From positions 128,001-192,000 of the forward strand of contig DAHVLZ010000009.1 of NCBI GenBank assembly GCA_027320085.1: a stretch of 64,000 nucleotides of DNA, read 5' to 3'. How positions within the stretch are numbered: the first letter of the stretch is position 1; every line of letters begins with the position of its first letter. This document shows positions 36,970 to 37,225 of the stretch, piece after piece. Made by a program: the position numbers and the translations under genes. The notes below the pieces were generated by a model that was not told where the DNA came from, did no database searches, and worked only from the letters and a program-made list of their open reading frames with translations. The DNA is from Pseudomonadota bacterium. GTDB lineage: Bacteria > Pseudomonadota > Gammaproteobacteria > JAKAQQ01.

Positions 36970-36998
36970 TTGACAGCGCCCACCAATCCGGGTATTGT
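36970..36998 (+). promoter_or_regulatory. Sigma70 promoter of the met leader/operon
   Basis: TTGACA (36970-36975), 17 bp spacer, TATTGT (36993-36998). Confidence 0.8.
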
Positions 36999-37006
36999 CG
37001 CCCTCC

Positions 37007-37117
37007 ATGTTTTACCAATCCACCCACCCAACCGCACGACGTCGTCCCACCGGACGGCTCATGTGTTGCTGCTTGATGCGGCAGTGGTGCGGTGTTGAGG
37101 TTTTGCGGTCGATGTAA
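37007..37117 (+). CDS. Putative Cys/Met-rich attenuator leader peptide (36 aa; alternative start 37061 gives 18 aa)
   Basis: MFYQSTHPTARRRPTGRLMCCCLMRQWCGVEVLRSM*; sits between the promoter and terminator upstream of metY. Confidence 0.7.
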   Translation: MFYQSTHPTARRRPTGRLMCCCLMRQWCGVEVLRSM

Positions 37118-37144
37118 TTTCTCAGAAATCCAACCAAAACCCCC

Positions 37145-37176
37145 AACCCGCACGGCGCCCCCGCAGCGGGTTTTTT
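37145..37176 (+). terminator. Intrinsic terminator (attenuator) before metY
   Basis: AACCCGC..CGG-loop-CCG..GCGGGTT ending in a T6 run, 50 nt upstream of the metY ATG. Confidence 0.8.
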
Positions 37177-37225
37177 ATTGCCCCTGCGTCGGCTCCGCGA
37201 GTGTAACCCCCCATCGGAGTTGACC

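Follow-up and report, generated by a model that had tools for sequence, protein, structure and literature searches.

The metY, metX and hom genes of an uncultured Pseudomonadota bacterium are preceded by a leader region whose sequence suggests a leaderless, dual Cys/Met-sensing, terminator-based leader-peptide transcription attenuator. The leader (positions 36,970 to 37,225) lies in a 64,000 nucleotide (nt) stretch of DNA, hereafter the window (GenBank assembly GCA_027320085.1, contig DAHVLZ010000009.1, positions 128,001 to 192,000, forward strand), and we assign a probability of about 0.78 to this reading of it. A preliminary description of the same DNA had proposed that ribosomes stalling at Met and Cys codons switch on the metY operon. 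This proposal is supported at the level of sequence: no riboswitch matches were found, and the run of Cys and Met codons is kept in 12 of 12 members of a family of related leaders.

The intergenic region upstream of metY spans 320 nt between a divergently oriented gene and metY. The only promoter-like site between positions 36500 and 37700 is TTGACA-17-TATTGT, with 10 of 12 matches (0.4 +/- 0.7 sites expected from shuffled sequences). A short open reading frame (sORF) begins with an ATG at 37007-37009, 8 nt past the -10 box, and there is no room for a Shine-Dalgarno (SD) sequence before this codon because only these 8 nt separate the two. We infer that transcription starts at or within ~2 nt of AUG 37007 and that 70S ribosomes initiate there without an SD sequence. 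The sORF comprises 36 codons and a TAA stop codon. It contains the run ATG TGT TGC TGC TTG ATG (M19 C20 C21 C22 L23 M24), and outside this run there is another Cys at codon 28 and a Met as the last codon.

Three mutually exclusive pairings (1:2, 2:3 and 3:4) can form among four segments of the leader RNA (Table 1). The 3:4 pairing is an intrinsic terminator, formed by a hairpin of -14.2 kcal/mol (z score -2.1) that is followed by six T residues. A simple terminator scan gave no sites at the leader, missing the stem on account of its internal loop; the hairpin is recovered by both ViennaRNA and RNAalifold. The 2:3 pairing joins the 3' part of the sORF to a segment overlapping the terminator and consumes the terminator 5' arm. 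When the leader is folded in full, this antiterminator is the minimum free energy (MFE) structure (-62.4 kcal/mol, z -2.62), with a stability reached by 1 of 200 shuffles, and the same pairing is the MFE structure when positions 37080-37158 are folded alone (-29.1 kcal/mol, z -2.43). Finally, the MFE structure of 37007-37110 (-40.3 kcal/mol, z -2.0) pairs segment 1 with GTGCGGT at 37087-37093, the beginning of segment 2, and equivalent 1:2 pairings occur in folds of the related leaders from genomes G001, G009, G007 and G005. The stop codon of the sORF is located 10 nt past segment 2. These single-sequence fold statistics are modest, and the case that the structures exceed chance rests on their conservation in related loci.

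Each of these parts had been named in the preliminary description and was recovered where that description had placed it: the promoter with an ATG at 37007 that lacks an SD sequence, the 36-codon frame with M-C-C-C-L-M, a further Cys and a final Met, the intrinsic terminator before metY (hairpin 37145-37172 and six uridines), the antiterminator 37087-37105 x 37135-37153, and the alternative ACCGCAC-GTGCGGT pairing. Its comparison with trp/his-type geometry also holds, as four segments, a terminator and an overlapping antiterminator are all present.

On the proposed mechanism, the leader would read out charged tRNA-Cys and elongator tRNA-Met. The transcript would start at or near AUG 37007, and a ribosome would load at its 5' end. 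When Cys and Met are plentiful, this ribosome would reach the stop codon at 37115 and cover or block segment 2 while RNA polymerase makes segments 3 and 4. With segment 2 blocked, the terminator (37145-37172 plus six U residues) would form and the transcript would end before metY. When Cys-tRNA or Met-tRNA is scarce (metY expression expected), the ribosome would stall within M19-C-C-C-L-M24, just upstream of segment 2. Segment 2 would then be free to pair with 37135-37153, depriving the terminator of its 5' arm, and polymerase would enter metY. If the sORF is not translated at all, segment 1 would hold segment 2 and the terminator would form.

The family of leaders on which this reading is based consists of 12 loci, of which six are from genomes of the window's order, three are from genomes of other species and three are from metagenome contigs. 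The genome of the window (G000) is 96% complete, with 2.14 Mb in 47 contigs, and its order is represented by 10 species genomes in the collection. Most of the window was found only in four DNA runs of one mine-drainage metagenome study and in no RNA run. Leader DNA is present in six of the 10 genomes of the order: three of four in the window's own genus (the window's genome included), all three in genus g3 and none of three in genus g2. These are the same six genomes whose MetY is at least 78% identical to that of the window.

When 185,579 species genomes were searched with the terminator core CCCGCACGGNGCNNCCGNNGCGGGTTTTT, eight loci were recovered, namely the five relatives in the order and three further loci termed L121, L123 and L125. 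The genome records of these three are labeled as a proteobacterium, a member of Natronospirales (a gammaproteobacterial order) and a member of Gammaproteobacteria. Each locus lies upstream of metY and has a TTGACA box, a 17 nt spacer, a -10 box and, 6 to 8 nt further on, an ATG. The sORFs carry A-C-M-C-M-C-M-(L/F)-M or A-C-M-A-M-C-M-R-M. Statements about L125, and about cysE in genome G043, rest on a genome that is flagged as unpublished. Three high-GC metagenome contigs among 80 metY relatives exhibit the same design, with the runs MCCLC (L038), ACMCCCMCM (L045) and MCAMCM (L112).

In all 12 members the start codon (ATG in 10, GTG in two) is located 6-9 nt past the -10 box, and the Cys/Met run is in frame with this promoter-proximal start, with the rest of the peptide diverging. 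The runs observed are MCCCLM, MCCRLM, MCMC, MCMCCVQM, MCMCCMLM, CMCMCMLM, CMCMCMFM, CMAMCMRM, MCCLC, CMCCCMCM and MCAMCM. Their first codon is 48-66 nt before the stop codon, which in turn precedes the terminator by 13-48 nt (12 of 12). Peptides of the window's genus conform to M(F/L)(Y/C)Q...G R (L/H) M C C (C/R) L M. Those of genus g3 conform to MN...FELH M C M C (A/C)..., and their N-terminal part is unrelated to that of the window's genus. Within genera, insertions and deletions (indels) in the sORF are 3 nt (G001) or 6 nt (G007), and those on either side of it, upstream as far as the -10 box or downstream of the stop codon, are 1 nt. Since the former are multiples of three and the latter are not, the pattern is a coding signature. 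Furthermore, a change in the Leu23 codon is synonymous (TTG to CTG).

Stalling was modeled by removing the RNA up to 15 nt past the first codon of the run and folding the remainder to the terminator 5' arm. With the ribosome stalled in this manner, an antiterminator that uses the terminator 5' arm forms in 12 of 12 members (-23 to -51 kcal/mol); the family terminators fold at -14 to -25 kcal/mol. The 5' arm of the antiterminator is an in-frame GUG CGG (Val-Arg) that pairs with CCGCAC in nine of 11 aligned members. The arms of G003 and G007 are one base off GUG CGG, and L038 and L045 have other arms.

The alignment (A3) includes 11 members and was anchored after MAFFT misaligned segment 2 between lineages. 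In A3, the seven pairs of the antiterminator core, GUGCGG(G), are paired in 88.3% of cells, and sliding the register by 1-3 columns gives 25-72%. The 11 pairs of the terminator are paired in 96.7% of cells, compared with 29-58% in slid registers. The terminator sequence is conserved across lineages because segment 3 must pair both with segment 2, which is also coding, and with segment 4. Two members depart from this conserved sequence: in L045 a U-A pair of the 2:3 helix is replaced by C-G, and L112 has the same architecture built from unrelated helix sequences. Structural support comes from conserved pairing potential and from these two divergent members. Taken together, the family comparisons indicate that the feature is real and conserved. 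The presence of Cys/Met codons in orthologous leaders was a point on which the preliminary description had staked its reading, and they are kept in frame in all 12 members.

An Rfam scan of positions 36500-37700 gave no riboswitch match even at an expectation value (E) of 10 or below, and 11 related loci gave no matches at E of 0.1 or below. The best Rfam match in the window's leader was Trp_leader (RF00513; 18.4 bits versus a gathering score of 41, E 0.93), aligned over the terminator only. The leader therefore matches neither an S-adenosylmethionine (SAM) riboswitch, another point raised in the preliminary description, nor any other riboswitch. Within the genome of the window, 32 frames have at least five Cys or Met codons among eight, 19 of them short; among these 19, a promoter and a terminator together accompany only the metY leader. 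A strict genome scan that specified a promoter, a start codon within 5-10 nt, an sORF and a terminator likewise returned the metY leader as its sole match. Separately, a crude genome scan returned 52 frames with single-residue runs before terminators. Two of these resembled Thr/Ile leaders and were rejected as coding sequence in the wrong frame or strand, one being the end of a longer open reading frame (ORF) and the other antisense to an ORF that by eye is pilin-like.

Table 1. Elements of the metY leader and genes of the downstream operon in the window.
Feature	Coordinates	Strand	Basis
-35 hexamer TTGACA	36970..36975	+	Promoter scan; kept in 11/12 family members (TTGACG in L112)
-10 hexamer TATTGT	36993..36998	+	Promoter scan; 17 nt spacer from -35
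Leaderless-type sORF, 36 codons + TAA (37115-37117), MFYQSTHPTARRRPTGRLMCCCLMRQWCGVEVLRSM	37007..37117	+	ORF list, translation
Segment 1 (ACCGCAC), anti-antiterminator partner of segment 2	37031..37037	+	MFE of 37007-37110
Regulatory codon run ATG TGT TGC TGC TTG ATG (M19 C20 C21 C22 L23 M24)	37061..37078	+	Sequence
Segment 2, antiterminator 5' arm, in 3' part of sORF	37087..37105	+	MFE folds
Segment 3, antiterminator 3' arm, overlaps terminator 5' arm	37135..37153	+	MFE folds
Intrinsic terminator (hairpin 37145-37172, U tract 37171-37176)	37145..37176	+	ViennaRNA, RNAalifold
Predicted hairpin 37188-37197 x 37215-37224 (GUCGGCUCCG with CGGAGUUGAC), sequesters metY SD GGAG 37216-37219	37188..37224	+	Folding
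metY, O-acetylhomoserine sulfhydrylase	37226..38533	+	TIGR01326 682 bits (cut-off 495); PF01053 449.7 bits
metX, homoserine O-acetyltransferase, 4 nt overlap with metY stop	38530..39660	+	NF001209 357 bits (cut-off 331)
hom, homoserine dehydrogenase, start uncertain (ORF listed from GTG 39576; in-frame ATG 39639)	39639..40772	+	PF00742, PF03447

The gene order downstream of the leader recurs among relatives, with metX following metY in seven of seven related loci checked and hom following next in four of four. A 197-codon ORF (40769-41362, forward strand) that overlaps the hom stop codon by 4 nt is without a Pfam or NCBIfam match, and a scan of 40600-41800 gave no terminator-like site. The ORF may be a spurious GC-rich frame or a fourth gene of the operon. 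On the other side of the leader, the divergent ORF (36244-37008, reverse strand), as listed, starts on the complement of the sORF ATG region and is without a Pfam match. Judged by eye, it probably starts near 36900 and its product resembles a membrane protein.

The sulfur metabolism of the host offers a rationale for a sensor of two amino acids. No CysE above cut-off was found in the genome of the window (best score 34 bits versus 210.65), in any of the order's 10 genomes or in the three leader-bearing genomes of other species. The sole CysK-like gene of the window's genome is a full-length match to the cystathionine beta-synthase (CBS) model, including the C-terminal CBS pair. This CBS-like gene adjoins a cystathionine gamma-synthase/lyase-like gene (G000:C8:76696-79226, L126; outside the window) and is found in nine of the 10 genomes of the order. 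These observations suggest that cysteine is made from homocysteine by reverse transsulfuration, and MetY is probably the only sulfide-fixing step, through which sulfur enters both Cys and Met. Homocysteine would feed methionine via MetH and cysteine via the cystathionine beta-synthase/gamma-lyase pair. On this view MetY, MetX and Hom would be a trunk shared by the routes to the two sulfur amino acids, which would make a leader responsive to Cys as well as Met codons the logical sensor.

Other RNA elements in the genome bear on this picture. A full-length candidate for a SAM-II (SAM_alpha)-like aptamer (G000:C30:8832-8909; L127:233-310) scores 33.6 bits versus a gathering score of 36 (E 1e-5). 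It lies outside the window, ~130 nt upstream of metF (methylenetetrahydrofolate reductase) and metH. Placement of the Met-specific branch, metF-metH, behind a SAM-II-like candidate fits the dual-sensing picture. Neither a SAM-I aptamer nor MetJ was found genome-wide in G000. A search of this genome for S-adenosylhomocysteine (SAH) riboswitches gave nothing, but its controls gave nothing too, which makes that search uninformative.

Several observations weigh against attenuation by Cys and Met codons as set out above. With respect to the 5' end, the ATG in the window's genome begins at the 9th nt past the -10 box, at the far edge of the usual start spacing, and a 5' end a few nt upstream of ATG 37007 is equally possible. 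With respect to the RNA, the naked leader has the antiterminator as its MFE structure, and this helix (-29 kcal/mol) far exceeds the terminator (-14 kcal/mol) in stability; termination must therefore rest on kinetics, ribosome masking and the 1:2 pairing. By our estimate, which assumes a footprint of ~15 nt on each side, a ribosome at the stop codon would mask only the 3' part of segment 2. Covariation measures in both helices of the 11 aligned sequences do not exceed shuffle controls because the helix columns barely vary, the cores GUGCGGG, CCCGCAC and GCGGG being nearly invariant. The run itself is degenerate in places (Cys22 is Arg in G003, and G009 has only MCMC), and Met codons would be unusual sensors, since initiation on the leader also needs Met-tRNA. 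Finally, the metabolic rationale draws on an absence of cysE that is judged from metagenome-assembled genomes 65-96% complete and on a CBS-like gene whose score of 363 bits is below the curated cut-off of 510.

Any cause of ribosome stalling would suit the terminator/antiterminator design, including a nascent arrest peptide that responds to a free metabolite (SAM, methionine, cysteine or homocysteine) rather than to tRNA charging and that operates the same RNA switch. TnaC, an arrest peptide responding to tryptophan, acts in this fashion. The motif (A)CMCMCM-x-M-R is kept as a peptide in several lineages, with an Arg after the run in L121, L123 and L125. However, the peptides are unrelated outside the run, and the run varies in order and length, which fits codon counting better. 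The conserved Val-Arg that follows the run is explained by the RNA arm GUGCGGG, and low-GC relatives have simple poly-Cys runs. We therefore judge an arrest peptide to be very unlikely.

It is just as improbable, in our estimation, that the leader is a ligand- or protein-binding RNA (an unknown riboswitch class or the target of an antitermination protein) in which the open frame is incidental. In its favor, the sequences of the terminator and its partner arms vary unusually little from lineage to lineage, the same genome has a SAM-II-like candidate at another site, and SAM riboswitches control other metY genes: a SAM-I aptamer above gathering score is present in 31 of the 79 metagenomic metY loci scanned. 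Yet the conserved sequence is fully explained by the three-way pairing of segments 2, 3 and 4. Moreover, lineages share neither sequence nor helices or junctions in the region 5' of the run, the leader matches no Rfam family, and the features that are kept in 12 of 12 members (frame, start position and Cys/Met identity), together with sORF indels in multiples of three, are those of a coding sequence.

A predicted hairpin between the terminator and metY (Table 1) sequesters the metY SD sequence, and most of the 11 family members folded likewise have their SD region within a hairpin. One idea, that a freed terminator 3' arm acts as a relay that opens this hairpin, was discarded on constrained partition-function folding of 12 members, in which there was no consistent stall-dependent gain in SD accessibility. 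The least probable explanation is that control is mainly translational, with the sORF opening or closing the metY ribosome-binding site, or that the sORF encodes a functional Cys-rich small protein next to a leaky terminator hairpin: despite the sequestering hairpin and a mycobacterial precedent that acts on translation, predicted SD accessibility in the window's genome is 0.00 stalled versus 0.10 unstalled and changes in mixed directions among the 12 members, the U-tract terminator and overlapping antiterminator kept in 12 of 12 are not needed by a purely translational device, and the peptide outside the run is not conserved.

Leader-peptide attenuation has been described for Trp, His, Phe, Leu, Thr and Ile/Val. 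For Cys, we know only of actinobacterial and alphaproteobacterial predictions and of one mycobacterial translational system. Like the enterobacterial trp, his, leu, thr, ilv and pheA attenuators, the window's leader has a promoter-proximal sORF, clustered cognate codons, 1:2, 2:3 and 3:4 pairings and a terminator before the first gene, and by these sequence-level criteria it would be classed with trp/his-type attenuators. There are also differences. The window's leader would sense two amino acids, Cys and Met, neither of which belongs to that enterobacterial set, rather than one pathway end product. Its sORF is without an SD sequence and is at the predicted 5' end, and its run follows segment 1 and precedes segment 2, whereas in the enterobacterial attenuators the run is part of segment 1. 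The two share no sequence homology.

The window's leader also resembles the mycobacterial polycysteine sORFs. In Ms5788A, as presented in the portion of the report consulted (Canestrari et al., bioRxiv 10.1101/834739), control is translational and involves no intrinsic terminator, the SD region being paired with the Cys tract. These sORFs share with the window's leader, for which a leaderless start and stalling are predicted, a leaderless frame with consecutive Cys codons, sulfur-metabolism genes downstream and relief of repression by stalling at Cys. In contrast to what is described there, the window's leader has a U-tract terminator and an antiterminator, Met codons, a homocysteine-synthesis target and a proteobacterial host. 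In addition, the metY SD sequence of the window pairs with 37188-37197 and not with the Cys tract; the Cys codons in the window's genome pair, if at all, with the terminator 3' arm. The window's leader is not a member of the mycobacterial group.

Cys codons in upstream ORFs (uORFs) have been noted elsewhere. The element uORFC-8-2 before cysS in Rhodobacterales has Cys codons followed by a terminator and is read as a ribosome-mediated attenuator in the sections consulted of Brewer et al. (2021; PMC8632094). Leader peptides with Cys runs, without terminators as far as the excerpted description goes, were predicted for actinobacterial cys operons and cbs (Seliverstov et al., 2005; PMC1262725). 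These resemble the window's leader in having Cys codons in a uORF. According to the same partial descriptions, they differ in serving other genes (cysS, the cys operon), in having two tandem Cys codons or a Cys run without Met codons and in not being described as leaderless; in sequence they are unrelated to it.

Control of methionine genes is generally attributed to MetJ, MetR, SahR, SamR and SAM/SAH riboswitches (PMC4239095). The survey of ~200 proteobacterial genomes in which this is set out (Leyn et al., 2014), in the parts consulted, attributes methionine regulation to transcription factors, riboswitches and one unexplained beta-proteobacterial metXZ RNA element. It also places beta-proteobacterial metY outside the known methionine regulators and reports that attempts to find new ones failed. 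Neither 'leader peptide' nor 'attenuat' appears as a string in that paper, as far as its text was available to us. The SAM-II/SAM_alpha, SAM-SAH and SAH riboswitches and the metXZ element resemble the window's leader, as far as the extracts describe them, in their targets (metY, metX and hom) and, for metXZ, in a terminator/antiterminator arrangement. These regulators are ligand-sensing or unexplained motifs described there without a coding frame, whereas the window's leader has such a frame and matches no Rfam model. No Met or Cys/Met leader-peptide attenuator of a proteobacterial met operon was found in the literature searched, which did not extend to subscription-only papers. Within that scope, the statement in the preliminary description that no such mechanism had been described for a gammaproteobacterial met operon stands.

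Cys/Met-rich frames are also found upstream of other metY genes, in metagenomic loci. The screen comprised 75 metagenomic metY loci with at least 150 nt of upstream sequence, five of 80 having been dropped for too little. A stop-free 8-codon window with at least five Cys or Met codons is present on the coding strand in 22 of these 75 loci, on the reverse complement in 1 of 75 and in 1 of 1500 dinucleotide shuffles. Most of the Cys/Met-rich loci are low-GC and are not homologous to the window's leader. Among more distant metY genes of the same class, 0 of 10 had an upstream codon window with at least five Cys or Met codons. The screen points to a general association of Cys/Met-rich upstream frames with metY. 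Two loci have upstream sORFs whose runs are Met-only or Met/Arg and lack Cys (MGMMMRMFMRM in L110 and AMSMRMRMHMH in L067), and these may be pure methionine-sensing variants.

A distinct arrangement was observed in 12 of the loci with a SAM-I aptamer (L051, L054, L057, L060, L064, L070, L073, L078, L089, L091, L096 and L104), where the distance from the aptamer to metY is at least 188 nt. In these loci an sORF, often with an MK[ST][LF] start, is located 0-15 nt past the 3' end of the aptamer. The sORFs end in a Cys/Met run, for example ...TMCCCCCCCS or ...ACCCCMCCCCMYC, and six of them were folded, with pairing between the Cys tract and CAACA- or GCAAC-rich segments further downstream predicted in five. 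This arrangement looks like a composite leader that would respond to SAM and to tRNA charging. Our literature searches found no description of a composite SAM-I/Cys-Met sORF leader.

The window's leader may belong to a wider set. We consider the odds to be even that Cys/Met-run leader peptides constitute a widespread, unrecognized class of metY regulators across phyla. The leader in the window would be the terminator-based, leaderless, dual-input form, acting at the trunk common to both sulfur amino acids in organisms whose cysteine derives from homocysteine. The low-GC form, 0-15 nt after a SAM-I aptamer, would integrate SAM level with the charging of tRNA-Cys and tRNA-Met. For annotation, an sORF with a Cys/Met run before metY provides a signature, and it is seen in many metagenomic lineages as well.

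If the reading of the window's leader as a Cys/Met attenuator is correct, methionine and cysteine codons would join the repertoire of terminator-based attenuators, and a leaderless mRNA would serve as an attenuator in Proteobacteria. The gap in metY regulation noted in the portions consulted of Leyn et al. (PMC4239095) would be filled. Furthermore, a single leader would read two amino acids at the shared trunk of their pathways.

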